A stretch of DNA of 64,000 nucleotides from Candidatus Cloacimonadales bacterium (lineage in GTDB: Bacteria > Cloacimonadota > Cloacimonadia > Cloacimonadales > JAFGVF01): the NCBI GenBank assembly GCA_963677495.2, contig CAXXOU010000001.1:704001-768000 (forward strand), given 5' to 3'. Positions 3,655 to 60,824 of the stretch are shown one piece after another. The position numbers and the translations under genes were made by a program. The notes under the pieces were generated by a model. It saw only the letters and a program-made list of their open reading frames with translations. It was not told the DNA's origin and did no database searches. Within the stretch, counting starts at the first letter, position 1, and the number at the start of each line of letters is the position of its first letter.

Positions 3655-3813
3655 TTTAACTCCTGTTTCATAATAAAAACAATCTAATGATAATACTCTT
3701 TTTTGCAAGCTTAACCTGTCTATTTTAGCAATATCAACTAAAAAAAGGATTGCAGAAAATCACACACTTATATTACAATGCACAGATTAATTTGTACCAG
3801 AGGTAAAGATAGA

Positions 3814-4449
3814 GTGAGTGAATCATATACTTCGAATGCTATATTGGCATATATAAACTCGTTTCTGACATATCCTAATCCGGTTCTCCCGGAGATGGAG
3901 AGGAAACATCAGACTAGAATCAATATACAACCAAATATGAGTTTGCAGGGTGCAACACTACTGCAATGTCTATTAACAATGAATAATGCGAAGCACGTGA
4001 TAGAGATTGGTGCATGTATAGGCTACTCTGCCATATTCATTGGTGAAGTGATGAAACAAAATGAAGGGAAACTTCATACAATAGAGATTGATGAACGCTT
4101 TATCCCTGAGATTTATGAGAACATACTTTCAGCAGATTTGTACAAGCAAATTGAAGTTATTAATGGTGATGCAGAGCAAAAACTTGAAGCGATACCCGGT
4201 GATGCAGATTGTATTGTGCTTGATGCGAATAAACCTTTATACCCGAGAATACTGGATTTATGCGTTGAGAAGCTGAAAGTCGGTGGTTTTATATTTGCTG
4301 ACGATACGCTCTTTAAACCAATGGGATTTGCAAAACGACTAAGTGAACCAATGGATGAATACAACAAACTTGTGTTCAAGAGAAAGGATTTAAAAAGTAC
4401 CATATTACCTATAGGTGATGGAATTACTTTGAGTATAAAGACAGATTAG
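3814..4449 (+). CDS. O-methyltransferase (caffeoyl-CoA OMT/TrmR-like)
   Basis: VIEIGACIGYSA SAM motif, LDANKPLY, LPIGDGIT; GTG start after GAGGT chosen (ORF track starts at 3778). Confidence 0.85.
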   Translation: MSESYTSNAILAYINSFLTYPNPVLPEMERKHQTRINIQPNMSLQGATLLQCLLTMNNAKHVIEIGACIGYSAIFIGEVMKQNEGKLHTIEIDERFIPEIYENILSADLYKQIEVINGDAEQKLEAIPGDADCIVLDANKPLYPRILDLCVEKLKVGGFIFADDTLFKPMGFAKRLSEPMDEYNKLVFKRKDLKSTILPIGDGITLSIKTD

Positions 4450-4457
4450 GAGATATA

Positions 4458-5003
4458 ATGAGAAAGATAATTATTACACTATTGAGCATTGTATTAGTTA
4501 CTATGCTTTTAGCATCAGAAAAGGACTTATTAAAACAGTTCAAGAAAGCAAAGATGAAGAAGCACAGTGGTGTACTCACAAAAATTGGTGATACTTGGCA
4601 CCTTGCGAAGGATAAGAAAAAGGGACCTGAGCTACATATTGACATTGAAGACTTAGAAGCATATGAAAGTCTGAAATGGGAGAATGGTACAGAGATAGAA
4701 CTTGTAGGTTTAACTCATAAAGGTAAGGTTCTTGTTACTAACATTTTCACCGAGACTGACACAATTCATATTCGTGACGCTAGAGGGATAAAACATACGA
4801 AAGAAACTCTTGCCGGTCAGTGGAAAGTAATTCCTAAGAAATGTATTAGCTGTGGGTTATGCGTAAAGCTATGTCCTGTTGACGCAGTTAAGATGGTCAA
4901 AGGTAAAGCTGTGATAGACCAATCAAAATGCATAAATTGCGGGAATTGTGCTCATGGTGGAATCAAAGGAAGAGGATGTCCTACAAGTGCGATTAAGAAA
5001 TAA
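4458..5003 (+). CDS. Exported protein with C-terminal 2x[4Fe-4S] ferredoxin domain
   Basis: Sec-type signal MRKIIITLLSIVLVTMLLA; CISCGLCVKLCP and CINCGNC-x9-CP motifs. Confidence 0.85.
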   Translation: MRKIIITLLSIVLVTMLLASEKDLLKQFKKAKMKKHSGVLTKIGDTWHLAKDKKKGPELHIDIEDLEAYESLKWENGTEIELVGLTHKGKVLVTNIFTETDTIHIRDARGIKHTKETLAGQWKVIPKKCISCGLCVKLCPVDAVKMVKGKAVIDQSKCINCGNCAHGGIKGRGCPTSAIKK

Positions 5004-5979
5004 AGCCCTCTTACTTCTTCTTGCAGTCTTAGTGTTCACGGGTTGTTCTGACTCAATCTCTAAGATATCTGTTGCTGGAAACGTCCCTCCAAGCCCTGTT
5101 TCTAATGTATCGACTTTATTAATCAACGATACATATCTCCAGGTTATATGGGATAACCCAAAGGAAAGTAGCCTTGACCATCACCGGATATATGTATGTG
5201 AGAATGCGGATTCTCTTAATTTGATTTCAAACCTGTATACTGATGCTTTACCTGGCAATTCAGAACAATCAAAACAAGGTATTACTATAAGAAATCTGCA
5301 ACCGGCAACTGAGTATAAAGTTGGAATCATTGCTTCAAACAGATATGGAAACGGTAAAGGTTTACAAGATTCTATTGTAGTGAGAACAGCTAACTTCCAT
5401 ATTGAGGATACTGAAGCCCCGGAAGCACCTGCTCTAGTGAATATCACCGGACACCTGACAAAAGGTATTGAATCAGCAACTAATACTGAACTGCAGATTG
5501 AATTTACTCCAACAGGATCAGGAGAACTGATAACTCCTGAAATCAGATTTGCCCCAATACCTGAGTTTGCCAATTGGGATGCTGCATGGCCAATATCTAA
5601 CCCTGATCTTTTCATACCTGAGGCAATAACAGGTGAAAAAGGGATTATTAAGTTTAGCTTTATTGATGCATTCTGGCCACTTCCATTCCAGACATCAGAT
5701 TATGAATTCGTAATCTATGTCAAAAGCAAAGATGCGGAAGGTAACCTATCAGAAGAGAGCATTGCTCTTACAGGCGTGTTTAAAGTTGAAGTTCAGTCCG
5801 GATGTATCAAATGCTGGAACTGTTTAGATGTCTGCCCTGAAAATGCAATCTCAAAGTCCAGCTCTAAAGCTGTAATTGATCTAACTAAGTGCACCAGATG
5901 CGGTAACTGTGTTTTAGAATGTGCAGATGATGGTTCAGAAGTTATCTTCTTCAAAACAGAGGAAGTGGGAGGAATCTAA
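4987..5979 (+). CDS. Lipoprotein with fibronectin-III-like domain and C-terminal 2x[4Fe-4S] domain
   Basis: GTG start at 4987 gives MRLRNKALLLLLAVLVFTG-C lipobox; LQPATEYKVGIIASN FN3-like; CIKCWNCLDVCP and CTRCGNCVLECA. Confidence 0.8.
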   Translation: MRLRNKALLLLLAVLVFTGCSDSISKISVAGNVPPSPVSNVSTLLINDTYLQVIWDNPKESSLDHHRIYVCENADSLNLISNLYTDALPGNSEQSKQGITIRNLQPATEYKVGIIASNRYGNGKGLQDSIVVRTANFHIEDTEAPEAPALVNITGHLTKGIESATNTELQIEFTPTGSGELITPEIRFAPIPEFANWDAAWPISNPDLFIPEAITGEKGIIKFSFIDAFWPLPFQTSDYEFVIYVKSKDAEGNLSEESIALTGVFKVEVQSGCIKCWNCLDVCPENAISKSSSKAVIDLTKCTRCGNCVLECADDGSEVIFFKTEEVGGI

Positions 5980-5981
5980 TA

Positions 5982-6230
5982 ATGAAGAAATACTTACTTA
6001 TCGTACTTATACTAATCACAATTCTTCTTGCTGTCACTGTAGAGGATAGTAGAAACCCACTCGTAATCAAAAACAGATGCGTTGGTTGTGGAGACTGTAT
6101 TGAAGTTTGCCCGGTTCAGGCAATTGAACTTGCTAATGGAAAAGCTTTAATAGACAATGAGACTTGCATAAACTGTGGCAAGTGCTTTAAAGCATGCACT
6201 TATAATGCTATCAGGAGTGCTCATGAATAA
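5982..6230 (+). CDS. Small exported or membrane-anchored 2x[4Fe-4S] ferredoxin
   Basis: Hydrophobic N-terminus MKKYLLIVLILITILLA; CVGCGDCIEVCP and CINCGKCFKACT. Confidence 0.85.
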   Translation: MKKYLLIVLILITILLAVTVEDSRNPLVIKNRCVGCGDCIEVCPVQAIELANGKALIDNETCINCGKCFKACTYNAIRSAHE

Positions 6231-6465
6231 GATAATATTAATTCTTGTAGTGATTGTAATAGCTTTAGCAGTTGGTTGCGACAAAGTAACTAAACCTGAG
6301 TATAATGTTGAAAGCTCAGCTTGTAATGCATGTGGTGCTTGCATTGATATCTGCCCCAATGATGCAATAGAGTTTGATAAGAATGGGAAAGCTATTATTG
6401 ACCAAACAAAGTGCATTCAGTGTGCTAAATGTATACCTGTTTGCCCACAAGGAGCGATTTACTAA
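6223..6465 (+). CDS. Small lipoprotein 2x[4Fe-4S] ferredoxin
   Basis: AGGAG RBS, ATG 6223: MNKIILILVVIVIALAVG-C lipobox; CNACGACIDICP and CIQCAKCIPVCP. Confidence 0.85.
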   Translation: MNKIILILVVIVIALAVGCDKVTKPEYNVESSACNACGACIDICPNDAIEFDKNGKAIIDQTKCIQCAKCIPVCPQGAIY

Positions 6466-7673
6466 TGAAAATAATAATCTCAATCCTACTCCTTATCTCA
6501 CTTACAACTCTTGTTGCTTTTGATATAGATAGTTATAACGAACTTTCATTCGGAATGTATAGTATCGATGGTGAGAACTATTACAATTTACAGGAAGAGC
6601 TCTTCTCTGACGTTACTTTCAACGATAGTTGGACTGGTGGTATTGAACTTGATTTTGTGGCTTCTGAAGAGGGATTTAGCGAGATGAACTCCAACCTGTA
6701 TGATAGATTTAGAACATATCTTAACTGGAACTATAATCAAACCAATTTTTACACTAGCTTTAGTAACACTCTTTTTGATGCAGCTAAAACTAATGATATT
6801 GTTTTAGCCGGTCTTTACGATCCGATTGTTAAGCCTGTAACAAAGAATAACTTAGTTTTCAGTGCTTCTCAATCTTTGTGGAATCTCACATTAGAGGGTG
6901 CTATCAGATATAGAAATCTTAACTATGACTACAATGTAACAGAAGATGTTGAACAGGAAAACGATATGTTTACTGACCTAACTCTTACTTATGATGTTAC
7001 AGAAAGATTTGGTGTGTTCTCGACACTCTATTATAAAGATGATCTAAGCGATATTCCTAGTTCTGAAATTCCTGAAGACTATGAGGTTGAAGATCCCAAT
7101 AGCTACTTCGATGAGTTCACAGTTGGTGGAGGATTATTCTGGAAACAACGATTTGGAATGAATCATGGATTTAAAATATCAACTGCATATCTCAATCGGG
7201 ATGGAGAGACAATTCCAGAATATCTCAACCACTATTTTATTACTGATGCACGTTATAATTTCACTTTCACACCACAACTAAATGGTTTCCTTTCCTGCAT
7301 AAGCAGGGGATCTTTCAGTAAGGAAGAGAAGAAGTTTTATCGTGTTTCTAACCTTATAAGAGCACAGTTTAAGTACAGTCTTATGCCATTCGACTCCAGA
7401 GCATATATTGGAATCGGTGCTAAGTATAACCCTGAGAATGAGACTGACAGATATTACACTGAGCTTTCCTACCCCGTTTTCAACAGGATTACGATTAAAC
7501 TGGCTGATTACTACTCTCCGGAATATTATAACAATATTGTAACAGGAATTGAGTTTTCTTATGCTAAATATAACTCGTTCTATCTGGAGAATACTTTCTC
7601 TATGGTTGAGAATGATATTGTAGCATTAGACGACTACAACGAACTAAGGTTTGGAACAAGGATATCATTTTAA
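6465..7673 (+). CDS. Putative outer-membrane beta-barrel protein
   Basis: ATG overlapping upstream TAA; signal peptide; alternating aromatic/polar strands; ends ELRFGTRISF (C-terminal Phe beta-signal pattern). Confidence 0.65.
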   Translation: MKIIISILLLISLTTLVAFDIDSYNELSFGMYSIDGENYYNLQEELFSDVTFNDSWTGGIELDFVASEEGFSEMNSNLYDRFRTYLNWNYNQTNFYTSFSNTLFDAAKTNDIVLAGLYDPIVKPVTKNNLVFSASQSLWNLTLEGAIRYRNLNYDYNVTEDVEQENDMFTDLTLTYDVTERFGVFSTLYYKDDLSDIPSSEIPEDYEVEDPNSYFDEFTVGGGLFWKQRFGMNHGFKISTAYLNRDGETIPEYLNHYFITDARYNFTFTPQLNGFLSCISRGSFSKEEKKFYRVSNLIRAQFKYSLMPFDSRAYIGIGAKYNPENETDRYYTELSYPVFNRITIKLADYYSPEYYNNIVTGIEFSYAKYNSFYLENTFSMVENDIVALDDYNELRFGTRISF

Positions 7674-8644
7674 TGTTTAAAACTTTGACAGAAGGGTTCC
7701 TACTAGGACTAACAACAGGTACAGTGTGCCTTGTTAGCTGCACACCAATATATCTACCGTTTATTATCTCTGAGAAACGTTCAATTGGAAAGAACTTTTT
7801 AAAGGTTATGGAGATTTCAATTGGTAGGTTCTTCTCATACCTATCTTTTGGTGCTCTTGCCGGCTGGCTTGGTGGTAATATCGAAACCATAGATAGAACA
7901 TTGTTCACCGGTATTGCTTATATCCTACTAACTGTATTTATGTTACTTTCTTTCTTTAGATTAACTAGAAAGGAGAAAAGCTGTCATATCCCTAAGTTTG
8001 TAAATGTAACTAAAAGTGCATTTTTACTAGGTATTTTCACCGGTATAAACTTCTGTCCATCATTCCTTATCGCATTGTCCAAAGCAGTTGATTTAGCAGG
8101 TGCTATGAGCGGGATTATGCTCTTTATGGGTTTCTTTTTTGGAACGTCACTGTTCCTAATTCCACTGGCATTCTCAGGATTCCTCTCTAAAATGAGCCTG
8201 ATGAAGAATATCGCTAGATACGCATCAGTTGCAGTTGCACTATATTTCCTCTATTCCGGTGTTGTGAAAATCAAAGATTTTGCCTTATCTACCCAAGCTA
8301 GAATCGTTGACCCGATCTCATCCGAGTATGATATTAAGCTTTTCACTTCTGATGTTGATAATCAATTCTATAAAGTGCTTTCTGATTCCCTGAATACTAT
8401 CAAATCAGAGCAGTTCACGTTAATAAAAACTAATGAGCTCAATCCTGACATGTTAGATAGCATTGAAGTTGGTACAATTATCCTTGTTGACCCGAAACTG
8501 GTAAATGATTCAAATATGGAAGCTATTCAAAACACAGACCATTATGTAATGAATCCTGGTTATGAACCCAAAGACGTTGTTCAGTTTCTACGAAACTATA
8601 GCATCAAGGTTGGCAAGAACCAATACCTTAAATGGGAGTTTTAA
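7673..8644 (+). CDS. DsbD_2/CcdA-like (TauE/SafE-annotated family) membrane protein with soluble C-terminal extension
   Basis: About 6 TM helices; GFLLGLTTGTVCLVSCTP, GRFFSYLSFGALAG, LLGIFTGINFCP motifs. Confidence 0.75.
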   Translation: MFKTLTEGFLLGLTTGTVCLVSCTPIYLPFIISEKRSIGKNFLKVMEISIGRFFSYLSFGALAGWLGGNIETIDRTLFTGIAYILLTVFMLLSFFRLTRKEKSCHIPKFVNVTKSAFLLGIFTGINFCPSFLIALSKAVDLAGAMSGIMLFMGFFFGTSLFLIPLAFSGFLSKMSLMKNIARYASVAVALYFLYSGVVKIKDFALSTQARIVDPISSEYDIKLFTSDVDNQFYKVLSDSLNTIKSEQFTLIKTNELNPDMLDSIEVGTIILVDPKLVNDSNMEAIQNTDHYVMNPGYEPKDVVQFLRNYSIKVGKNQYLKWEF

Positions 8645-8759
8645 AAACCATTTTGATGATATGAGTACATTATAAGAGATGAAATAATCTACCAAAATCC
8701 CTTGTTTGTTGCTTGACAGTTTAAATCAGCTTAACAATATCTCTTAAAGGATGAGATTG

Positions 8760-9650
8760 ATGAGTAAAATTGAGAGTCGAACACTATATTCGGATGGTTT
8801 GCTTCTATTAACCGCTGCAATCTGGGGATTTGCTTTTGTAGCTCAGAAAGTAGGAATGGAGAGCTGTGAGCCCTTCATGTTTAACGCAATCAGGTTTGCA
8901 TTAGGTGCTTTAGTTCTCATTCCTTTCCGCAAGAAGAAAATCAACTACCACACCCACTCGAAAGAGCTTAAATACTCAATCTTTACCGGATTAGCACTGT
9001 TTACTGCCGCCTCTCTTCAACAAATAGGAGTGAAGTTCACATCTGCAGGAAATGCAGGATTTATTACCGGGCTATATGTAGTATTTGTTCCTATAATCGG
9101 CATCTTCATAAAACAGAAAACTGGTTTAAGCGTATGGATAAGTTGTTTGTTCGCAATTTTAGGTATGTATTTTGTGAGTGTTTCCGGAAGTTTAAGTTTG
9201 ATGAAGGGTGACCTGTTCGTGCTTGCAAGTGCGGTTATTTGGGCTATTCACGTACAGCTTGTAGGCAAGATTGGTAGCAAACTTGGGGCAATACGTTTAG
9301 CAATGATTCAGTTCACTATCTGTTCGTTGTTAAGCTTCCTTACAGCAATGTTGTTCGAGACCAATAGCTTATCAGGTATATATCAGGCTACAGTTCCCAT
9401 TCTATATGGGGGATTGTTATCTGTAGGGATAGCTTATACATTGCAAATTGTAGCCCAAAAATCAGCTCCACCAAGCCATGCCGCTATCCTTCTTAGTATG
9501 GAATCAATGTTTGCAGTGCTGGGGGGAGTAGTAGTATTAAAAGAGAGTTTAACACTAAGATCAGGTATTGGTTTCAGCTTAATGCTAATCGCGATGTTCT
9601 TAGTACAAATAAAGCAATTTTTCGGATCAAACAAAACAAAGGAGAGATGA
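8760..9650 (+). CDS. DMT/EamA family transporter
   Basis: AAIWGFAFVAQK, AGNAGFITGLYVVFVP, AYTLQIVAQK, LSMESMFA; about 10 TM. Confidence 0.9.
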   Translation: MSKIESRTLYSDGLLLLTAAIWGFAFVAQKVGMESCEPFMFNAIRFALGALVLIPFRKKKINYHTHSKELKYSIFTGLALFTAASLQQIGVKFTSAGNAGFITGLYVVFVPIIGIFIKQKTGLSVWISCLFAILGMYFVSVSGSLSLMKGDLFVLASAVIWAIHVQLVGKIGSKLGAIRLAMIQFTICSLLSFLTAMLFETNSLSGIYQATVPILYGGLLSVGIAYTLQIVAQKSAPPSHAAILLSMESMFAVLGGVVVLKESLTLRSGIGFSLMLIAMFLVQIKQFFGSNKTKER

Positions 9651-12600
9651 ATGAAACGGATCACATTACTTTTAGTAATTTCATTCATGTTACTTAATCT
9701 GTTTTCCACGCCAACAGGCGTAACAGCCACAATTCCTGATGACGGACAGGGATTTTGGTCTGGCAACAGAGCGGTAGAGGGACGACCTGAGCTTAATATT
9801 ACCAGCTCAGAGACAACAAGTATTAATCATGAAAGATGGCAGGAAGTCAGTAGAATCGAGTTTGATGAGTACTTAGAACCCGGTACATATCTCGGTATTG
9901 AATACAACCCATGGAACTTCCAATTCACAAAAGTATCTAATCAATCCGGTTTAAACAGTGTAGCAGAAAGTGCAATTGCACGAGCTCCGGAATGGTTGAA
10001 ATCTCAACTAAGATATACACTTTCCCAATTGAGTAACTCCAGACAAACTGTCTGGGGGAATACTATCTTAGATGCTGTTACTCCATACATTGATGAAGTA
10101 TGCTATGCAGTTGCATGGTCATCACCGGGATATCTTACAAGACAAGATATATATCCTGAGCTAATGCATGAGAATGCACGCTTGATGTATGATATAGCTG
10201 ATGAGTTGCAGTTTGTTTCTATTGTTGATCAAGGTAATGAAGCGTCCGGAGATTGGTATTCAACTACTCAGTACCGCAAAATGGATGAGTTTGGTATCGA
10301 AAGATGGGTTACAGTTGATAGAGATACATATTATATGTATGTTGTGCATCCCAAGATTACTGATGAAATCCCAAACTATATAGATCCTGACCACTCAGAG
10401 TCTAATTCAAGTCATGCTAATAACTTTGCCGAGCCACCGGTTGGACGTTTCTGGAGAGAATATCTTTATTATCATAATGATGATGGCTACCCTAAACTAA
10501 GAGACATGCTTGCAAACTGTCAGTATGTGATGGGTTCTCCGGTTTCTGAAGAGAATGCTATTATGCAAATAAACAGTTGGGTCTCTCAATCAATGGTTTT
10601 TACTTCAGAAGCTGAAAGACCACATCAACCGGTTAGAATCTATGACAAGCATATTGGTAGATGTGGAGAGCATCAGGATTTACGGGGTGCATGTGGAAGA
10701 ATAGCACTTATTCCGACTAAGGGAATCAATTGTATCTCAGGTGACCATGTATGGAATGAGTTCTGGGATGAGAGATGGATTCATTGGGATGGAGGAGGAA
10801 ACTCTTTAGATAATCCACTGCTATATGAGAACGGATGGGGAAGGCATTACGGTTCAATATTTGAACAACGCTCAGATGGTAAATTCATCCCTGTATCAGA
10901 CAAATACTCTGATGGATATGCAACTCTGAATATCTGGGCTATTGATGCTGAAAATAACCCAATAGACGGTGCAAGTGTATATTTAAGAGTTGAAGTTGAT
11001 GGTGATCCATACTTTGATAATGTAGGGGTTACTGATGATACAGGTCTTTGTACATTTATCGTTGGTGAAGATAGGAAGTATTATGCCAGAGTGAATAGTG
11101 TAATTCAAAATATGCCATCCTCCGGATACGACCTGCTTGTTGATAATGCAGCTAATAATGCTGTTTACGACTTTACCTTCCAGGCAACTCAAACGATGAT
11201 GGTTCCTGATGTTTCTTATACTCCGGTTCCAGATAGTACAGGCACACAATACAAGATAGAAACTCATTTCTTCTCAAACAGGTCACTTATTATTGGAAAC
11301 TCAGTATTTGATGATGCAAGTGGGGGTTTACACTACCAAGCTGATTATTCTAATGGAGGAGCTGATCTGTATATGACAGACAGTATTAACTTTGCTGCCG
11401 CTACTTCAGGCTTGCCTTTTGCAGCTTTTCATAGTTATCACGATATGGAAGATATATGGGTCCAATTCTTTACAAATACTGATGACTTCTGGTATTCCTT
11501 CTTCATGAATGGGCATAATGTAGTTAATCCTAAGCATGTCCAAGGTAGTTTTGTAATCTATACAACTGACCCAGAATATCAGACAGGAACAATGGATATC
11601 ACAGTGCTAAATGAAAATGAAGAGCCAATCCCCGGTGCTACAATTGTATTGGAACCTAATGATATTTCTTTTGAAGCAACAGAAAGCAATATATCAATAG
11701 ATGTTGCACAAGGTACCTATGATGTATATTGCTATCCGGGAGAGGATAATCCTAATTATCTACCTACAGCCTTTACCGGTGTTTATGTTTCTGCTGGAGA
11801 AATAGAAGTTCTAGAGTTTGTATTAGAAGAAAACGCGAATCCTGTAAGTAGATTAACTGCCGTGGATGAAGGTCAACAAGTTCATTTATCTTGGGAAGGA
11901 TGTTTCAATTCAACCCGTGACCTTGAATCAATCAGTCTTTTCAGGGGTGAAGTGAACTCCGAGCTTACAATAAATGATGGAAATCTTTATCTTGTTGCTG
12001 AAATGGAGCAAGGAGATTCCTATATCGATACTGATTGGAGTCAGCTTCCAAGCAATGTCTATAGATGGATGATTGTAGCAAACTATACAGGTGGAGAGCA
12101 CTCGATACCTGTTTATTCAAACATCATTGAAAAAGATATGACTGTTGCTGTTGACTTCAATATTACTACAAATACAGATATAATTCCTGATGGTGCAATT
12201 ATCACTCTTACAAATTATGATGATGTAAGTAGTCATCAATATGAAGGGATATATGAGAATCAAAGCTGTATTTTACCAAATGTATGGTTGGGAGAATACT
12301 ATCTGACTGTTACCTTCGCTGACTTTGAGTTTTATGATGATGATTTGCTAATTACAGCAGACGAGACTATAGATGTTGAATTGATTCAAAACTTAACAGT
12401 TCCAGGCAATTGTAGTGTTTCGGAAGGAGTTCTAAGTTGGTATCCATGCAACTTTGCTACAGCTTATAAAGTCTATCTTGATGGCACTCTACAAACTGAA
12501 ACAACAGAAATAGATTACACATTCGCAGGACTATCAGCAGATGTTAACTACTTAGCTGGGGTTAAAGCTGTATATGAGACAGGTGAGTCAGAGCTTTATG

Positions 12601-14900
12601 AAATAGGATTTGTTAATGGTAGCTCAGTAGGCTTTGGTAAAATAGCTAACTTCAGCTTTAATGGTGATTCAGTTGAATCAATCAACAATATCAATATTAA
12701 TGAGTATGGAACAATAGAGTACTCTGATGATGCAGTATCCGGACAATCAGTTGTGCTTGATGGTTTCAGTAGTTACTTGGAGTCAGATAACTCACCAATT
12801 CTTAACAGTGCTGCAACACATTATACTGTTAAGATTTGGGTTAAACCTCGAATTCCAGTAACTAACTGGACTGGTATTGTTGGTAAACCGGGTAGAAATT
12901 ATAACATCTGGACTCATCCTAATGGCTATATACACCATAGATTCCACACTGATACAGGTACAAATAATGGAATAGGAAACACAAACGATGGTGTTATGAA
13001 TTGGGGAGAATGGAATCATATTGTTATTACTAATGACGGTACAGTTGGTAAGACCTATGTCAATGGTGTGTTAGAGCAATCAGGTACATTCTCAGGTGAT
13101 TTAATTGAAGATGACACTCCGCTCATCTTTGGTCGTCATCTTGATGGCAACAGTATGAATTGCATGCTGGATGGAAAACTTGATGAATGTGTTATTTGGG
13201 ATAGAGCTCTTTCTGAGAGTGAAGTAGCTATGGTTTACCTTGAAGAGATGATTCCTGAAGGTACTATAACCGGTAGTATCACTGATGCAAATAATACTCC
13301 TATAGAAGGTGCAATAATTAGTGTTGGCTACAGAGAAGTAGTAAGTAGCTCAAATGGTGGATACTTAATCGCAGTTCAGCCTGCTGATTATGAAATGCAT
13401 GTAACTGCATCCGGATATAGCGAGTATGTACAGAATATTTCTGTTACTGCTAATGATGCACAGAGTATAAATATTTCCCTTACTGAAGCCTTGGAAACGC
13501 CGATGGGTTTAGCTGTGTTCGATAATGAGCTATCATGGTGTCCTGTTGGACTCGATAACGATAGAGATTTTACAGAGTATAAAGTTTATCTGGAAGGCTC
13601 TGAAGTAGCAACCACACAAGATACGAGCTACACTTTCACGAACTTAAACCCGGACCAAACCTACATGGCTTCTGTTGAAGCTTCGTTTGATACAGGTATA
13701 TCACAACAAGCGGAAATTGGTTTTAAAGATGGATCATCACTTAGTTATATGAACACTTTAAACCTGCCTCTAGATGGAGATTATTCAGAAGAGCACGGTA
13801 ATACTCCAACCTCAGTTAATGGTGACCTGACTTTTGTAGCTGATGAAGCTTTTGATAACTATCTTGAATTTGATGGTGTTGGTGACTACCTTGAGCTCTT
13901 AACTACAGACTTGTTAGGATTCTACCAATCAAGTTTCACAGCCAGTGCTTGGGTAAAATTAGCAAGTGACGATACAAATGATAAAGCAATCTTTGGTACT
14001 AATTTCTCCGGAGCAACTAATGGCGGTCTACATTTGATGGTTAGAACTGGACGAGTTAGTATGCGATTCTATGGAAATGACACAAACCAGAATCATGTGC
14101 TTATGCCTGGAGTTTGGTATCATGTTACATATAGATATGATATTGATGCTCAGAAACAAGAGATGTTTGTGAACGGTGAGCTCATAAAGAGCGGAGAAAA
14201 CAAGACTCCTTTCGATAATGCCGGTACCCCTGTATTCATAGGGCAAGCAGATGGTTCTCGCTTCTTCGAAGGTGGCATGAAACATATAAATATCTGGAAC
14301 AGAGCTTTGAGTAGTGCCGAACTCCTGAATAGTTATAACTCAACTGCTCCTGATTATGGATATATCTCAGGTGTTGTAACTTATGCCGGTGATGGAGAGC
14401 CAATGGCTGGTGTTACTGTGACAGTAAATGACGTTCAAGCAACTACAGATGCTGAAGGTTATTATATGATTCCCGTTACAGAGGGGACTTGGGATGTGTC
14501 GTTCAAGCCGGGACTACATACAGAGTTCATCGTAGAAAACGTTATTGTTACTGTCGGTGAAACGTCCCAAGTTGATTACAGTTATGATTTCACTGGTAAT
14601 AATGATGCGGAGCAACTGTCAATTGTAACAGCGTTAAATGCTGTATATCCAAATCCATTTAACCCAACAACGACAATCAGCTTCTCATTAAAGTCTACGG
14701 ACAATGTAAAACTTACTGTGTATGATATCAAAGGTAGGAAAGTAGTTGATTTGGTTGATGCTACTTTAGGAGCCGGTGGTCACACTGTAAGTTGGAATGG
14801 AGAAGATAATAACGGAAAGAGTACTGCATCAGGTATTTATTTAATTAAGATGTCTACAAATAGTTATGAGTCTACACGCAAAGCAGTGTTGATGAAATAA
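9651..14900 (+). CDS. Large T9SS-tailed protein: transglutaminase-like core, carboxypeptidase-regulatory-like/Ig repeats, two LamG-like domains
   Basis: Signal peptide; GRCGE/DHVWNE/WIHWD; two LamG-like regions (IWDRALS, IWNRALS); YPNPFNPTTTISF...KAVLMK tail. Confidence 0.85.
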   Translation: MKRITLLLVISFMLLNLFSTPTGVTATIPDDGQGFWSGNRAVEGRPELNITSSETTSINHERWQEVSRIEFDEYLEPGTYLGIEYNPWNFQFTKVSNQSGLNSVAESAIARAPEWLKSQLRYTLSQLSNSRQTVWGNTILDAVTPYIDEVCYAVAWSSPGYLTRQDIYPELMHENARLMYDIADELQFVSIVDQGNEASGDWYSTTQYRKMDEFGIERWVTVDRDTYYMYVVHPKITDEIPNYIDPDHSESNSSHANNFAEPPVGRFWREYLYYHNDDGYPKLRDMLANCQYVMGSPVSEENAIMQINSWVSQSMVFTSEAERPHQPVRIYDKHIGRCGEHQDLRGACGRIALIPTKGINCISGDHVWNEFWDERWIHWDGGGNSLDNPLLYENGWGRHYGSIFEQRSDGKFIPVSDKYSDGYATLNIWAIDAENNPIDGASVYLRVEVDGDPYFDNVGVTDDTGLCTFIVGEDRKYYARVNSVIQNMPSSGYDLLVDNAANNAVYDFTFQATQTMMVPDVSYTPVPDSTGTQYKIETHFFSNRSLIIGNSVFDDASGGLHYQADYSNGGADLYMTDSINFAAATSGLPFAAFHSYHDMEDIWVQFFTNTDDFWYSFFMNGHNVVNPKHVQGSFVIYTTDPEYQTGTMDITVLNENEEPIPGATIVLEPNDISFEATESNISIDVAQGTYDVYCYPGEDNPNYLPTAFTGVYVSAGEIEVLEFVLEENANPVSRLTAVDEGQQVHLSWEGCFNSTRDLESISLFRGEVNSELTINDGNLYLVAEMEQGDSYIDTDWSQLPSNVYRWMIVANYTGGEHSIPVYSNIIEKDMTVAVDFNITTNTDIIPDGAIITLTNYDDVSSHQYEGIYENQSCILPNVWLGEYYLTVTFADFEFYDDDLLITADETIDVELIQNLTVPGNCSVSEGVLSWYPCNFATAYKVYLDGTLQTETTEIDYTFAGLSADVNYLAGVKAVYETGESELYEIGFVNGSSVGFGKIANFSFNGDSVESINNININEYGTIEYSDDAVSGQSVVLDGFSSYLESDNSPILNSAATHYTVKIWVKPRIPVTNWTGIVGKPGRNYNIWTHPNGYIHHRFHTDTGTNNGIGNTNDGVMNWGEWNHIVITNDGTVGKTYVNGVLEQSGTFSGDLIEDDTPLIFGRHLDGNSMNCMLDGKLDECVIWDRALSESEVAMVYLEEMIPEGTITGSITDANNTPIEGAIISVGYREVVSSSNGGYLIAVQPADYEMHVTASGYSEYVQNISVTANDAQSINISLTEALETPMGLAVFDNELSWCPVGLDNDRDFTEYKVYLEGSEVATTQDTSYTFTNLNPDQTYMASVEASFDTGISQQAEIGFKDGSSLSYMNTLNLPLDGDYSEEHGNTPTSVNGDLTFVADEAFDNYLEFDGVGDYLELLTTDLLGFYQSSFTASAWVKLASDDTNDKAIFGTNFSGATNGGLHLMVRTGRVSMRFYGNDTNQNHVLMPGVWYHVTYRYDIDAQKQEMFVNGELIKSGENKTPFDNAGTPVFIGQADGSRFFEGGMKHINIWNRALSSAELLNSYNSTAPDYGYISGVVTYAGDGEPMAGVTVTVNDVQATTDAEGYYMIPVTEGTWDVSFKPGLHTEFIVENVIVTVGETSQVDYSYDFTGNNDAEQLSIVTALNAVYPNPFNPTTTISFSLKSTDNVKLTVYDIKGRKVVDLVDATLGAGGHTVSWNGEDNNGKSTASGIYLIKMSTNSYESTRKAVLMK

Positions 14901-15980: not shown

Positions 15981-17045
15981 TTAGTCTATCTCAATAAGTT
16001 TATACTCTTTTGATCCTAGACCGATTTCATGCCCATAATCAACCTGATGGTTACCTGATGTATGTGAATGCTTAGCAAACGCATCGCTGAGCTTAGTTTG
16101 CTCATTTACAAGGTCAAGACAGGCTTTATCGATAGCTACCATATCCAATGAAGAAAGAACACCAATATCATCTGTGAAAGCAGGAGGTGCTGAACCAATA
16201 CAATCGCAATGTGCTGATATGTTGTTTAAGAAGTTAATATATACCATATTCGTGTTTTGTGAAATAGCATGAGCATATTCAGTTACACGTTCCTGGAATA
16301 CATTTGTATCAGTTGAGCCCCATGGCACACCGAACACCTGTTCAGGGCAGATTCCTATACAAGCAGCACAACCAATACATTTTGACTCATCTATTTTTAC
16401 AGGTTCTATTGTAATCGCTTTACCAGGGCAGTTATCAACACATAGCCCACATTGAATGCAACGAGAATCACTATATTGAGGAATAGCAGATGCATGCATT
16501 GCCATCTTGCCGGGAATACTACCAAGTCCCATGCCAACATTCTTAATTGCTCCTCCAAAACCTTGAGCAACATGTCCTTTGAAGTGAGAAATAACAATAA
16601 TTGTATCATAACTAAGCAGTTCTTTACCGGTACTAACTTGTTTAAAATGCTTTCCATCATATTCAAGTAGTGCTTCTCCCCCATCATCAACAATATCAAT
16701 AGGCGCAAAATCGAATCCATGCTCTTTCGCAAGTGTTATATGTGAATCAGTGTAACGTCGAGGACTCACATAAAGAACATTAGTCTCAATTAGAGTTGCT
16801 TCTAACTCTGTTACAAGCTCTTTGATTAGACTTGGTTGAATGTAATTCTTATTACCTTTTTCACCAAAGTGGATCTTGATTGCTACTTTACCTTGAACTT
16901 TCGAACTTACTTTCTCATATACTGCTTTTAAACCCTGTGGGCTTATATCTCTTGTTAAATATACCATTTTCTCTCCGTTACTCCTTGATTTTGCACACAG
17001 AACCACTAGTAGTAATAACACAACTATCGTTATGAACATCTTCAT
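15981..17045 (-). CDS. DUF362 family protein with 2x[4Fe-4S] domain and N-terminal signal/anchor
   Basis: VAIKIHFGEKGN, ISHFKGH..GFGGAIKNVGMG, CIQCGLCVDNCP, CIGCAACIGICP, CDC, DMVAIDKAC. Confidence 0.9.
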   Translation of the reverse strand: MKMFITIVVLLLLVVLCAKSRSNGEKMVYLTRDISPQGLKAVYEKVSSKVQGKVAIKIHFGEKGNKNYIQPSLIKELVTELEATLIETNVLYVSPRRYTDSHITLAKEHGFDFAPIDIVDDGGEALLEYDGKHFKQVSTGKELLSYDTIIVISHFKGHVAQGFGGAIKNVGMGLGSIPGKMAMHASAIPQYSDSRCIQCGLCVDNCPGKAITIEPVKIDESKCIGCAACIGICPEQVFGVPWGSTDTNVFQERVTEYAHAISQNTNMVYINFLNNISAHCDCIGSAPPAFTDDIGVLSSLDMVAIDKACLDLVNEQTKLSDAFAKHSHTSGNHQVDYGHEIGLGSKEYKLIEID

Positions 17046-18343
17046 TAGTACTCCAAAACTTTAACAGGATTCTTAGTTTTTATCGATAAAACGATACCTT
17101 CTTCTTTAGAACTGAACTGCTTATCATCCTCTTTAAAATGAATGTTAATATCCTTTGGTTTGTTGATTATAACGAAGCCGTTTTCCGCAATTACTTCAAG
17201 TTTTAAACTCTTCATATTCTCAGATAAGGTAAGATCTACGTTTCCTTCGTCAATTTTGATAGAATAGAGGCATTCCTCTGCTAAAGGTAACACTAACTCA
17301 CCTTCTTGTCGTAATTCGCTAAAAAAGCCCTTTTTTGTTTGATACCAATCATGCTTCTGAAGCCCCTGGTTCCAAGAGGAATCGTATTTGTTGATTAATT
17401 TACTACCGGGGAATCCGAAACCATGAGCACTCATTTTATAAAGAAAGTTTTCAGCGAACTCGATTTTAACATCAGCATTTAGTAATGATATATCAAACGA
17501 TGAGGAAAACTTGCTATCGAACTCTTTAAATCTATCATAGCGTTTGACTCTTGTATATGGTGTGGCAGTAAGTACCAAAGCGATGAGAACAATGCTTATT
17601 ACTACAGTAAGAGCAACTACTGTCTTCGATTTCTTCAAACGCTGAACGCAAACTTTCTCTGTATACAAGCTCTTGTCTAATCCCATAAGATAGTATAAAA
17701 GGTATGAAACCCAATACACTATCATAGCTGCCCATAGGACATCACTAGTAAAATGCCCACCTTGAATAATACGAGCCATACCAATTGCTAAACCATAAAT
17801 CCAGGCAAAGAGTAAGATCCCGTAAAACTTCAACTTCTTGCGTCTAAACAAAAGAGCAGGAGCAAAGAAAAAGAATCCCATAGTAGCATGTCCGCATGGG
17901 AATGAGTTTCCCCCACTCATCTTATCATAATCACACACACGCTCGAACTTACTATGCCCCCCAAACTCGACTACTTCTCTTGGACGTGGTCTACCCCAAT
18001 GCTGTTTTAGTACACTATTAACAATAATTCCCGGTCCAAGTAGCATAACTAGCACTAAGAAACCCGCCATCTTCTGATACTTAGCAGTTTTTTCTTTGAA
18101 GAAGCTTTTAGCTAATACAATCAATGCTCCTAAGACAACTATTAGTGCAGGAATATTGCCGTAATGGTATAGCTGTTTCCATGGAAAGGAATTCTTAAGG
18201 AACCATCCGTCAGACGGGTGCCAGAACTTTGACTGGATAGCAAGATCCCATTTATTGCTTCTAAACAATATTGTTATTCCAATTAACAGAAGAATTGGAA
18301 TAATCAAGTCTGTAGCCATTTCTATGTAATTTCGTTTTTTCAT
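17045..18343 (-). CDS. PAP2 family membrane phosphatase with C-terminal extracytoplasmic extension
   Basis: KQHWGRPRP, SFPCGH, RIIQGGHFTSD catalytic motifs. Confidence 0.88.
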   Translation of the reverse strand: MKKRNYIEMATDLIIPILLLIGITILFRSNKWDLAIQSKFWHPSDGWFLKNSFPWKQLYHYGNIPALIVVLGALIVLAKSFFKEKTAKYQKMAGFLVLVMLLGPGIIVNSVLKQHWGRPRPREVVEFGGHSKFERVCDYDKMSGGNSFPCGHATMGFFFFAPALLFRRKKLKFYGILLFAWIYGLAIGMARIIQGGHFTSDVLWAAMIVYWVSYLLYYLMGLDKSLYTEKVCVQRLKKSKTVVALTVVISIVLIALVLTATPYTRVKRYDRFKEFDSKFSSSFDISLLNADVKIEFAENFLYKMSAHGFGFPGSKLINKYDSSWNQGLQKHDWYQTKKGFFSELRQEGELVLPLAEECLYSIKIDEGNVDLTLSENMKSLKLEVIAENGFVIINKPKDINIHFKEDDKQFSSKEEGIVLSIKTKNPVKVLEY

Positions 18344-55533: not shown

Positions 55534-58500
55534 CTATTTCATTAGTATCATTTTCTTTGATTTTGTGTATGTTCCGGATTGCATCTTATAGAAATACACA
55601 CCACTTGAAACAGAACTGTTATTATCATCAACACCATCCCAGATAACTGAATGTCTGCCGGCATTATAATGGTCATTTGCCAGTGTTTTTACTTTCTGAC
55701 CTTTGACATTATAGATGTCGATAGAAACGTTACCTGCTTCTTTCATATCGAAGCTGATAGCGGTTTCAGGATTGAATGGGTTAGGATAGTTGCCACGTAA
55801 TGCTGTAGTAGTAGGAACAATTACTTCTTCCTCTTCACCAACTGTAGCACCATTGTTTGTAAGCATCATGTCATCAACCATCATGAAGAAAGTCTGACTT
55901 GAAACACAATGCAATGCAACTCTGATAGTCTGACCGGCATATGCATCTAAATCATATGTGAACTGAGTCCAGTCAAGAGGGGCATCAACAGGGCTGTCAC
56001 CAGTGATAATAGTGAAATCATCCGGGTCAGCACTTCCATTAGAAATACCCACTTCAAACTGTTCGTTTCCAAACTGGATAGTATATGATCTTGCTAAGAA
56101 CTTAAGGGAAGCAGGATCATTTGATAAAAGAACTTGTTGAGAAATCAACCAGTCATCATTAGAGCCTGAATCAGCAGCAAAGCAAGCAAGATATTGATCT
56201 CCTGTATAAGCATCAGCGAACTGAACAGGAGGAACTGTCATTGATGGATTAAAGGCAATAAATGCCATAGGGTCATTTTCTCCTGTGAAATCTATACCAT
56301 TGTTGAATCCATAAGTTCCTTCACCATCACCATCAATAGTAATCCATGGGCTAAGATCTGTGGTGAATGGATCGAATGTATCGAAACTATCAGCAATAAC
56401 AGGTGGATCTACTTCAGTGAATACAACATTAATTGAGTCGCATGCAGGAGATTCACCGGTAGGACCTGTATATAGTGCAGTAATCTTATATTCATAAGAC
56501 TGATCGAATGTTAAGTCATCAGCTGTATCAAGATAGAACTGAGCTGTAACAGGTTCAGAATTAACAATTACATCATCTCTATAAACATTGTAACCTGCAA
56601 GAGAACGGGTAGGTTCTTCAGGTTGCATCCAAGAGAGAGTTACACCTTGGTAGCTAATATCATGAGCTAAAGCAGTAGGAGGATAGAAACCATCCGGTTC
56701 ATCATGATTATCAGTGATAACCCAGAGAGAGTAGTCTCCTGTAGCCCAGCGTGTACGTCCGTCGTTCTTTTTACCAACTCTATCCATTGCTGGGGAGTTA
56801 TCGAATCTAGCTATTCTAAGATAATAGAAACCTGCTTCAGTGATGTTAGTTGCAATGTATGGATTCATACCATCAGTCCAGCTGTCATCATCAAATGCCA
56901 TAGCCTGATCTTCTGGTACTGTCTGACCGAGGTCATCGAAAGGTCCATAAAGGAATGCAGATAAATCTACGTTAGAACCATAAAGATTCTCTGTATGGAT
57001 TTCAAGGTTAGCAGGAGCTGCCTGCCAGAAAGCATACCAATCAATGTCTGTTACAGGTTCGATGATAGCTTCTAAACCTTCACAATCAAGTACTAGCTCA
57101 GTAGCATCATCAGATTGGTCATTGCTGTCTGCAACATAGGCATAACCATGCAGAGGAATCTCATGCACTTCTCGACTATCAGTTACATTGTCCACAATTG
57201 TAATAAGTGCTTCTTTGTGTCCCGCAGTGGTAGGATTGAAAGTTAAATCAAAACTAACTTCACCGAACTGAGGGATACTGATAGGGTATGTGTTACCGTC
57301 AGTTAGAGTAAATTCACCTGCATCATCACCTGTAAGGGTAATAGCAGGATCGATAACTGCATCGGATTGCCCGAAGTTTGCAATTCTGATATTATAAACA
57401 TCAGAAGTTGTACCAACATTGTGAACACCAAAGTCAACATCCAAAGCACTAAGAATCACATATGGTCCAACACTTGGTGGAATCATGAAGAATCTTGTGT
57501 TTGGTATCAGGTTCGGTGTAAACATTGCTTCCGGTGGAGCGATTGGGTCAGGGTCAGTACCATCATTATAAAAATATATGCTTCTTGGCGTAGCTGTTTG
57601 AGTACAATAAAAGTCCTCTGTTGAATCTCCATATTCAGGTTCATTCTCTTCAACAGCTATAACAAGGTTAGACATACCATCATAGAAGAACATGTTTTCC
57701 AATGTAAAGTCTAACCATCCAGCACTAGTAGGATTTGCTATAGTTCCATTATACACCATAGTTAACTGATCATAAGGTATCCAAGAAGTTGTACTATCGA
57801 AACTCTCTTGGTCAGTTAATCCCATATATACAACCCACTGAGTACTTGAACTTAAGTCTCCACCACCATTGAACTGATATGAGATAGAAGTGATGAATCC
57901 CGCAGAGCCAAACTCTTCAGGTGTGTATATAGATTGAGAGTAACTATATCCGTAATATGGTTCTATAGGTAAGAATTGATTCTCTTCAACGCCATCCCCA
58001 ATGATAACCATGCCTTCAGGTCTTGTAGAGAAAGTCCAGACAGGGCAACCGGTAGCATCACCAACGAAGTTGTAAGGGATAATCTGCCAATAGTAGTCAG
58101 TTTCAAATGCAAGAGGACCTGTGATAGCATATTCGTTAACGAATCCGGCATCAACACCGTCAACTATATTTGTTGGAGGGTTATCAGAACCAAAATATAC
58201 TCTATATCCATCAGGATAGTTTCCACCATCAGCCCACTCTAATATAGGAGTGATGCTCTGGTTTTCTGAACCATCTTGTGGAGCAACTATAGTTGCAGCA
58301 TTTGGTATATCATTGAATGTTGTAAATGACCAAACCGGGCAATTTGTTGCACTACCTATAGCATTATATGGTGTAACTTGCCAGTAATAAACAACACCAG
58401 CAGTTAAACCAGAATAATCGAATGTATAGTTATTACCTGCATCTACCATATCATAGACATCTGTAGGTGGATTATCAGTACCCATACTTACATAATATCC

Positions 58501-60699: not shown

Positions 60700-60824
60700 A
60701 ATCTTCTCCCTTTTTACAAAGATCAATTATTTCCGAGGTAGGCCTACACCTACCTCGGCCCCTTTAAATTGAACGATAATTAACAGTTTTAAGTAATTGA
60801 TGTCAATTACTTTCTAAATCAGAT

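Follow-up and report, generated by a model that had tools for sequence, protein, structure and literature searches.

Porin-cytochrome conduits, such as MtrCAB of Shewanella, PioAB/MtoAB, and Pcc of Geobacter, are encoded as one set, with a redox protein for the periplasm, a barrel for the outer membrane, and a lipoprotein redox protein for the surface, and carry electrons across the outer membrane. To our knowledge, all described trans-outer-membrane electron conduits use multihaem cytochromes, and all described periplasmic iron-sulfur (Fe-S) proteins are exported folded by way of Tat (twin-arginine translocation). Here we analyze a cluster of six genes at positions 4458–8644 of a 64,000-nucleotide (nt) window (the whole stretch of DNA studied, positions 704,001 to 768,000 of contig CAXXOU010000001.1) from a Candidatus Cloacimonadales bacterium (GCA_963677495.2). 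The cluster has the layout of these conduits and presumably shares their role, but it lacks CxxCH motifs (0 in all six proteins) and cytochrome c maturation genes, and its cofactor domains are 2x[4Fe-4S] ferredoxins. It is a genuine envelope system, conserved and apparently not described before. Our preferred reading, to which we give a probability of about 0.5, is that it encodes a haem-free and quinone-free ferredoxin chain that would connect the inner membrane, by way of the barrel, with the cell surface.

The six genes are all on the plus strand and, as read from the sequence, are separated by gaps or overlaps of -17 to +2 nt. Sizes are in amino acids (aa):

F1, 4458–5003, plus strand: 181 aa, predicted exported ferredoxin, Pfam Fer4 PF00037 at E 1.3e-12
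F2, 4987–5979, plus strand, GTG start: 330 aa, predicted lipoprotein, fn3 at E 4.7e-9 and Fer4 PF00037 at E 2e-8
F3, 5982–6230, plus strand: 82 aa, small predicted exported ferredoxin, Fer4 PF00037 at E 4.3e-15
F4, 6223–6465, plus strand, ATG start: 80 aa, predicted lipoprotein ferredoxin, Fer4 PF00037 at E 1.6e-14
Barrel protein, 6465–7673, plus strand: 402 aa, 0 Pfam or NCBIfam matches
DsbD_2 protein, 7673–8644, plus strand: 323 aa, DsbD_2 PF13386 at E 2.9e-19

The initial annotation of this stretch had described six abutting or overlapping genes, four of them for 2x[4Fe-4S] ferredoxins with eight cluster motifs in total, and two of these four lipoproteins, followed by a barrel and by a DsbD_2 protein with CLVSC and FCP cysteines, with no CxxCH anywhere. 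All of this was recovered: the six open reading frames (ORFs) are at the coordinates listed, each ferredoxin has two CxxCxxC motifs (seven of the eight are canonical CxxCxxCxxxC), lipoboxes are present in F2 (LVFTG-C) and F4 (LAVG-C), and CLVSC (C19 and C23) and FCP (C128) are found in the DsbD_2 protein. The curated NCBIfam cut-off was reached by no family in any of the six proteins. The barrel has 20 predicted strands, against 26 in MtrB, and no Pfam family, MtrB-type ones included, matched it at E ≤ 0.01. The multihaem cytochromes that define the porin-cytochrome family were looked for and are absent, and the cluster does not belong to that family, though its layout would work alike.

Other described systems share parts of the cluster. 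In NapGH/NosGH a membrane Fe-S protein of the NapH family works with a periplasmic polyferredoxin, NapG being a Tat substrate, and relatives of our cluster pair an F1-type ferredoxin with a NapH-like protein (PF12801). However, the window cluster has no PF12801 gene, there is no Tat, no twin-arginine (RR) signal, and no quinone prenyltransferase, no nitrate or N2O reductase is encoded here, and an outer-membrane barrel and putative surface ferredoxins are added. With DsbD/CcdA, and with the "DsbD systems" linked to flavinylation (Meheust et al., 2021; PMC8238504, as far as the portion consulted goes), the cluster shares a DsbD-superfamily membrane protein accompanied by small secreted redox proteins, and the window DsbD_2 protein has conserved Cys in its first and fourth hydrophobic segments like DsbD/CcdA. 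In the same portion of that article, NapH-like and DsbD proteins are proposed as membrane modules of extracytosolic electron-transfer systems, sometimes linked to iron. The differences are that the match is to PF13386 and not to PF02683, that the invariant Cys number four and not two, that a Cys-free C-terminal domain is present, and that the partners are ferredoxins. By Pfam, the six genes contain no ApbE, FMN-binding, DUF2271, DUF3570, thioredoxin-like, or DUF4266 domain.

The initial annotation had predicted the product of the barrel gene to be an outer-membrane beta-barrel. An AlphaFold2 model built with 53 sequences bears this out, with a predicted local distance difference test score (pLDDT) of 91.6, a predicted template modeling score (pTM) of 0.82, and 20 long antiparallel strands that come after a helix for the signal peptide; it supersedes a model built with 6 sequences (pLDDT 68.9). 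The protein has a predicted signal peptide (MKIIISILLLISLTTLVA, followed by FD) and a C-terminal Phe, and 45 of the 53 homologues also end in an aromatic residue. Foldseek, run on the first (6-sequence) model, gave 339 PDB matches at E ≤ 0.001, with outer-membrane barrels at the top. The best structural matches are the TonB-dependent transporters BtuB, Cir, and FauA (Z 16 to 17, approximately 340 residues aligned, identity 8 to 10%), BtuB reaching in VIA-align a Z of 17.4 with a root-mean-square deviation of 4.9 over 338 aligned residues, and these are followed by the 19-strand barrels of VDAC and Tom40. MtrB is absent among the best 50 VIA-align matches listed, although absence from this list excludes no family. 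Unlike the TonB-dependent transporters, the window protein has 20 strands instead of 22, has no Plug or TonB_dep_Rec match, and its strands start directly after the signal peptide. A profile search at E ≤ 0.001 found just 74 relatives among 1.84 billion representatives, so that the family is rare. The model thus predicts the 6465–7673 product to be a large outer-membrane barrel in a rare family of its own, and, because it resembles TonB-dependent transporter barrels but lacks their plug, its lumen may be wide enough for a small domain. A complex prediction of mature F3, mature F4, and the barrel with four 4Fe-4S clusters gave, with the barrel as partner, values of 0.82, 0.83, and 0.70, while the two controls with the barrel replaced gave 0.00 and 0.00 and the one with an unrelated protein in place of F3 gave 0.73; the verdict of the tool was "no answer", which speaks neither for nor against binding.

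A gene set not kept together in other genomes would have contradicted the initial annotation, and the synteny check found the opposite, F3, F4, and the barrel being joined in 20 of 20 and then in 10 of 15 Cloacimonadota loci. With a single protein as query, the barrel turned up in 87 of the 232 Cloacimonadota genomes (57 of the 151 of high quality, 25 of 66 genera). The first 20 loci come from four families, and all of them show the order F3-type, F4-type, barrel. A DsbD_2 gene comes directly after the barrel in 16 of these 20; among the other four, two are at a contig edge (in one of them the DsbD_2 gene begins another contig) and two are without DsbD_2. The DsbD_2 subfamily was detected in 91 of the 232 genomes (E ≤ 1e-30), and comparison of the two lists gives 52 genomes with both proteins, 35 with the barrel only, and 39 with DsbD_2 only. 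When a profile made from the barrel alignment was applied to 15 loci of the "DsbD_2 only" genomes, F3, F4, barrel, and DsbD_2 were found together in 10, with DsbD_2 directly after the barrel, so the single-protein search undercounts the barrel.

Named records anchored on the DsbD_2 gene gave a similar picture, with a barrel and at least two small ferredoxins directly upstream in 55 of 70 assessable loci under a strict rule (two more by eye), although these loci overlap with the 20 and 15 above and are not independent of them. Judging from the record titles (n = 79), 70 belong to Cloacimonadota or its synonyms and four to Fibrobacterota, Chitinispirillaceae, or Chitinivibrionales, the last two of which we take to be Fibrobacterota lineages. 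Three of these four repeat the order of small ferredoxins with export signals, barrel, and DsbD_2; in the remaining one (L143) DsbD_2 is preceded by a gap of 1.3 kb in which the profile detects no barrel. The arrangement is far beyond chance; the same gene order recurs across families of the phylum. In three of the loci titled Chitinispirillaceae or Fibrobacterota, DsbD_2 is followed by an ORF of 370 to 529 aa whose start is hydrophobic and which carries two or three ferredoxin motifs (L139:5544-7133, L140:4192-5733, L141:5525-6637).

Each of F1 to F4 is predicted to bind Fe-S clusters by its Fer4 profile match and its two CxxCxxC motifs. F1 has a signal peptide (MRKIIITLLSIVLVTMLLA, followed by SE), a domain of approximately 95 aa without recognized family, and then the two-cluster ferredoxin domain, in which CxxCxxCxxxCP is followed by the one non-canonical motif of the cluster, CxxCxxC-x9-CP. 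In an alignment of 11 members of the F1 family six Cys are invariant, and some relatives have losses only at the second Cys of a motif. In known ferredoxins, loss of the second motif Cys is the change that makes a 3Fe-4S site out of a 4Fe-4S one, and this pattern of variation argues for F1-type proteins being true cluster binders rather than generic Cys-rich modules. F3 is little more than a signal peptide and a domain of approximately 60 aa, with all eight cluster Cys invariant in 18 of 18 homologues, and an F3-type gene was found in every barrel locus examined. The N-termini of its homologues are rich in K and R and then hydrophobic, with LFA followed by SE or ASA followed by AY as frequent endings.

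The two lipoproteins are quite different in size. F4 (N-terminus MNKIILILVVIVIALAVG-C) has a tether of approximately 14 residues after the lipobox and then the ferredoxin domain, and 16 of 16 homologues (49 to 86% identity) retain the lipobox Cys19 as well as all eight cluster Cys; its gene is always directly upstream of the barrel gene. F2 (N-terminus MRLRNKALLLLLAVLVFTG-C) most likely starts at the GTG at 4987, as read from the sequence, although the ORF list has an earlier GTG at 4948. After the lipobox come the residues SDS, and then an fn3 domain, a middle region without recognized family, and a C-terminal 2x[4Fe-4S] domain. In relatives, the F2-type lipoproteins measure 598 to 1417 aa and combine several fn3 domains with ferredoxin domains at one end or at both, and all of them start with a lipobox in which the next residue is acidic. 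This acidic residue presumably resembles the surface-export signal of Bacteroidota lipoproteins, and F2 is a candidate for the surface-exposed end of the chain.

Signal peptides were judged by conservation and sequence features. The initial annotation had taken the N-termini for export signals and not for inward-facing anchors, and three lines of evidence agree with it, namely the lipobox Cys of F4 (16 of 16), the absence of RR (0 of 45 N-termini of F1, F3, and F4 homologues, and none in the first 15 residues of the six proteins), and the type IX sorting domains found on sister ferredoxins. Related clusters encode a further, fifth type of ferredoxin (178 to 185 aa), in which a Por_Secre_tail domain accompanies the signal peptide and the two cluster motifs (PF18962; L022 at E 1.4e-6, L035 at 9.3e-10, L052 at 8.1e-9, and L061 at 1.2e-15), and 16 of 16 members of this family have both kinds of domain. 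No Por_Secre_tail was found by Pfam on F1 to F4 of the window. Nevertheless, the window genome (G000) encodes one such protein elsewhere (C2:348312-349094, L046:6313-7095), of 260 aa, with a signal peptide, a 2x[4Fe-4S] domain (Fer4 E 2.4e-13), CarboxypepD_reg, and Por_Secre_tail at 29.3 bits (cut-off 27), beside a SMP-30/gluconolactonase-like gene and away from the cluster. A type IX sorting domain makes sense only for a protein that gets past the inner membrane and is bound for the surface. Because related clusters and this other locus of the window genome encode ferredoxins sorted in this way, at least some ferredoxins of this type of system are predicted to reach the cell surface. An extracytoplasmic location of the ferredoxins is well supported by the sequence evidence.

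The window genome has at least 150 Por_Secre_tail matches and a single, marginal one to SprA_N (28 bits, cut-off 27). Within the window itself, two ORFs of 1749 and 1730 aa, at 9651–14900 (plus strand) and 55534–60726 (minus strand), end in type IX sorting domains (Por_Secre_tail at G000 C1:718643-718888 and C1:759546-759788).

The DsbD_2 protein consists of about six hydrophobic segments and a Cys-free, net acidic C-terminal domain of approximately 125 aa. Four Cys are invariant in 34 of 34 sequences: C19 and C23 in the first segment, C104 in a basic loop, and C128 in the fourth segment (NFCPSF). The basic loops 33–45 and 96–116 suggest that these parts face the cytoplasm, and the positive-inside rule together with the analogy to CcdA would place the C-terminal domain probably in the periplasm. 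There are 222 homologues, mostly labeled "sulfite exporter TauE/SafE", and all of those with an organism name are Cloacimonadota/Cloacimonetes. The C-terminal domain gave no usable match in the ESM Atlas, the family profile found nothing under E 0.47 among PDB sequences, and no thioredoxin-like Pfam domain was detected in the six genes or the two flanking ones. Longer homologues are encoded at L050:7537-8901 (454 aa) and L064:7787-9286 (499 aa), the usual size being 320 to 335 aa, and the L050 copy has no ferredoxin or barrel genes nearby. At L056:4817-8003, L072, and L105, a DsbD_2 gene without barrel comes directly after an ORF of 831 to 834 aa, with an F1-type gene also present in L056 and L105. 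The L056 ORF has Fer4_20, Pyr_redox_2, and Fer4 domains, like an NAD(P)H-dependent oxidoreductase, and a role of this type of ORF as cytoplasmic electron donor for DsbD_2 is possible.

A NapH-like gene (Fer4_5, PF12801) is found in 10 of 35 loci, mostly beside the F1-type gene, and an ORF in L033 resembles it beyond the ten counted by Pfam. One of the loci without DsbD_2, L035 (G164, 7030–9751), has the NapH-like gene, and in it Fur and FeoB follow the barrel; no DsbD_2 homologue was found in the G164 genome with the query used. In another relative without DsbD_2, a DUF2271 protein (L038:4839-5939) is encoded convergently to the barrel gene and also has a CarboxypepD_reg domain and a type IX-like tail of the FlgD_ig/CHU_C kind. 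DUF2271 is a flavinylated family according to the consulted portion of PMC8238504. In the window genome the sole NapH-like gene (C4:230604-231386, L047:6605-7387) has a LexA-like repressor gene on one side and glmS on the other; it is outside the cluster, with no ferredoxin gene near.

The window genome (3.41 Mb in 4 contigs, 99.46% complete), which among named organisms is closest to Candidatus Zophobacter franzmannii and other Cloacimonadota, was searched for Tat and for other electron carriers. TatC has 0 matches in it (11 of 14 control genomes were positive), and in the phylum it is found in 9 of 232 genomes, 3 of 151 high-quality ones, and 2 of the 87 that are barrel-positive. With no TatC and no RR signals, the ferredoxins would not be exportable in folded form. 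Cytochrom_C_asm (PF01578) is absent from the genome (control 9 of 14), and none of its 9421 ORFs of at least 50 aa has three or more CxxCH motifs, which leaves the cell no cytochromes for moving electrons in its envelope. There is no UbiA-family prenyltransferase in the genome either (control 14 of 14), which suggests an organism without respiratory quinones. NqrA_N also gave 0 matches, a result of little weight with only 4 of 14 controls positive and 2 above the cut-off.

We can therefore picture the proposed ferredoxin chain as follows, although each step is conditional. The apoproteins would cross the inner membrane unfolded via Sec, or via Sec and then Lgt and Lsp, and would acquire their clusters in an anoxic periplasm that is probably rich in both iron and sulfide. 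DsbD_2 would keep their cysteines reduced, as CcdA does in cytochrome c maturation, or else it would be the entry point of electrons. From a cytoplasmic donor, electrons would pass to the inner-membrane module (DsbD_2 here, a NapH-like protein in relatives), over the periplasm on F1 and F3, and across the outer membrane via at least one ferredoxin domain seated in or at the wide barrel. Because its gene always adjoins the barrel gene, F4 is the prime candidate for this position. The outer end would be formed by the fn3 lipoprotein F2 and by type IX-secreted ferredoxins, which could reduce or oxidize insoluble or partner-bound substrates, the direction of electron flow being possible either way. 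Both the electron-wire function and the loading of clusters after Sec export are plausible on the sequence features. The more specific proposal, in which Fe-S clusters are inserted outside the cytoplasm into Sec-exported apoferredoxins with DsbD_2 as the counterpart of CcdA, and ferredoxins and barrel make a wire to the surface free of haem and quinone, is one that we hold tentatively and at somewhat short of even odds.

Several points weigh against the ferredoxin chain. We know of no described machinery that loads Fe-S clusters outside the cytoplasm, and apart from DsbD_2 the cluster has no candidate assembly gene. Thiol chemistry at thioredoxin-like potentials would hardly reduce low-potential ferredoxins. 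No terminal reductase or oxidase is encoded nearby, and the flanking genes differ between lineages and give no pointer to a substrate. Finally, 35 of the 87 barrel-positive genomes have no DsbD_2 match at E ≤ 1e-30, and three near-complete genomes carry the ferredoxin-barrel module with no DsbD_2 homologue found by the query used. Because of these three genomes, DsbD_2 appears as a frequent but not obligatory partner.

Other explanations can account for part of these data. The genes could encode a redox module confined to the periplasm, in which DsbD_2 or the NapH-like protein feeds the ferredoxins and a diffusible substrate (polysulfide or sulfur, an oxidant, or a metal ion) enters through the barrel as through an ordinary channel. 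The structural comparisons (Foldseek, VIA-align) make the barrel equally like substrate channels and transporters, relatives show the NapGH-like pairing of F1 and NapH-like genes, and DsbD-family proteins normally supply reducing power to periplasmic acceptors (PMC8238504, within the sections consulted). We consider this unlikely all the same, since it leaves unexplained both the ferredoxins with type IX sorting domains and the long lipoproteins in which fn3 domains space ferredoxins at both ends, the cluster has by Pfam no catalytic subunit (a molybdopterin, haem, or flavin enzyme), and the strict adjacency of F4-type and barrel genes across the phylum suggests a dedicated pair. Still less probable, in our opinion, is a function in the acquisition of iron or Fe-S species or in metal handling, where Cys-rich proteins would capture iron or sulfur species in sulfidic habitats and pass them through the barrel to a DsbD_2/TauE-like permease. 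It would agree with the Fur and FeoB genes that replace DsbD_2 after the barrel in L035, with the heavy-metal P-type ATPase upstream in one genus (L022), with the database name "sulfite exporter TauE/SafE", and with the acquisition of iron by Pectobacterium through uptake of ferredoxin by a 22-strand receptor (PMC6042079, in the part consulted). However, only 1 locus among the 35 has iron-related neighbors, and the check for the ATPase covered a single locus, so that neither is a conserved feature. No TonB-box or plug domain was found and the barrel matches no Pfam family; the NapH-like partners indicate electron transfer, and perfectly kept double cluster motifs and multi-domain chains are typical of electron carriers.

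The ferredoxins could also sit in the cytoplasm on N-terminal membrane anchors, with the barrel and DsbD_2 as unrelated neighbors. Fe-S proteins are normally made in the cytoplasm, their folded export needs the Tat pathway that is missing here, and the hydrophobic regions of F1 and F3 have 16 residues, long for a cleaved signal peptide. It seems very improbable to us nonetheless, given the invariant lipobox Cys, the positively charged N-termini that predict an N-in, C-out orientation, the type IX sorting domains on sister ferredoxins, and a gene order with an outer-membrane barrel that is shared by four or more families of the phylum and by loci with Fibrobacterota titles. The initial annotation itself had left two alternatives side by side, an envelope-spanning Fe-S wire and a redox or metal-handling module outside the cytoplasm, and this hedged interpretation fits all the evidence.

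Around the cluster, an O-methyltransferase gene (3778–4449, plus strand, PF01596 at E 4.3e-23) ends 8 nt before F1. It was considered as part of the system and rejected, as among 20 loci it is upstream only in L021, of the same genus (88% identity); it is probably outside the core system, although it may be co-transcribed with the cluster in the window genome. A scan for promoters and terminators gave counts no higher than in shuffled sequences (19 vs. 22.2 and 3 vs. 3.0). At 7 kb from the cluster, on the minus strand, the gene of a DUF362 protein with a 2x[4Fe-4S] domain and a hydrophobic N-terminus (MKMFITIVVLLLLVVLC) abuts that of a PAP2-family membrane protein (15981–17045 and 17045–18343), and the DUF362 protein may be another membrane-associated or exported Fe-S protein.

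In the literature we found no description of exported bacterial-type ferredoxins together with an outer-membrane barrel, supplementary file 1 of PMC8238504, which possibly lists related clusters, being left aside. The consulted portions of three papers on Cloacimonadota (PMC8542988, PMC9324843, and bioRxiv 10.1101/2021.10.08.463351) do not describe the system. For a metal-reducing Gram-positive bacterium, Fe-S proteins are reported as part of the surface proteome (PMC4137172, in the sections consulted), which is at most a distant precedent.

If the proposed chain is true, a phylum with hardly any Tat would have a conserved system that places ferredoxins in the periplasm, anchors others by lipid, and displays some at the surface. 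This would break both of the rules with which we began, that outer-membrane conduits are multihaem cytochromes and that periplasmic Fe-S proteins leave the cytoplasm folded through Tat, and would imply a new route of Fe-S protein maturation outside the cytoplasm. Its small and genetically simple parts would be of use in bioelectronic engineering. For the Fibrobacterota-Chlorobiota-Bacteroidota (FCB) group it would provide fermenters and syntrophs that have no cytochromes with a route of extracellular or interspecies electron transfer. Cloacimonadota are abundant in anaerobic digesters and anoxic lakes, and for its cytochrome-free members the chain would offer a testable mechanism of electron disposal or uptake.

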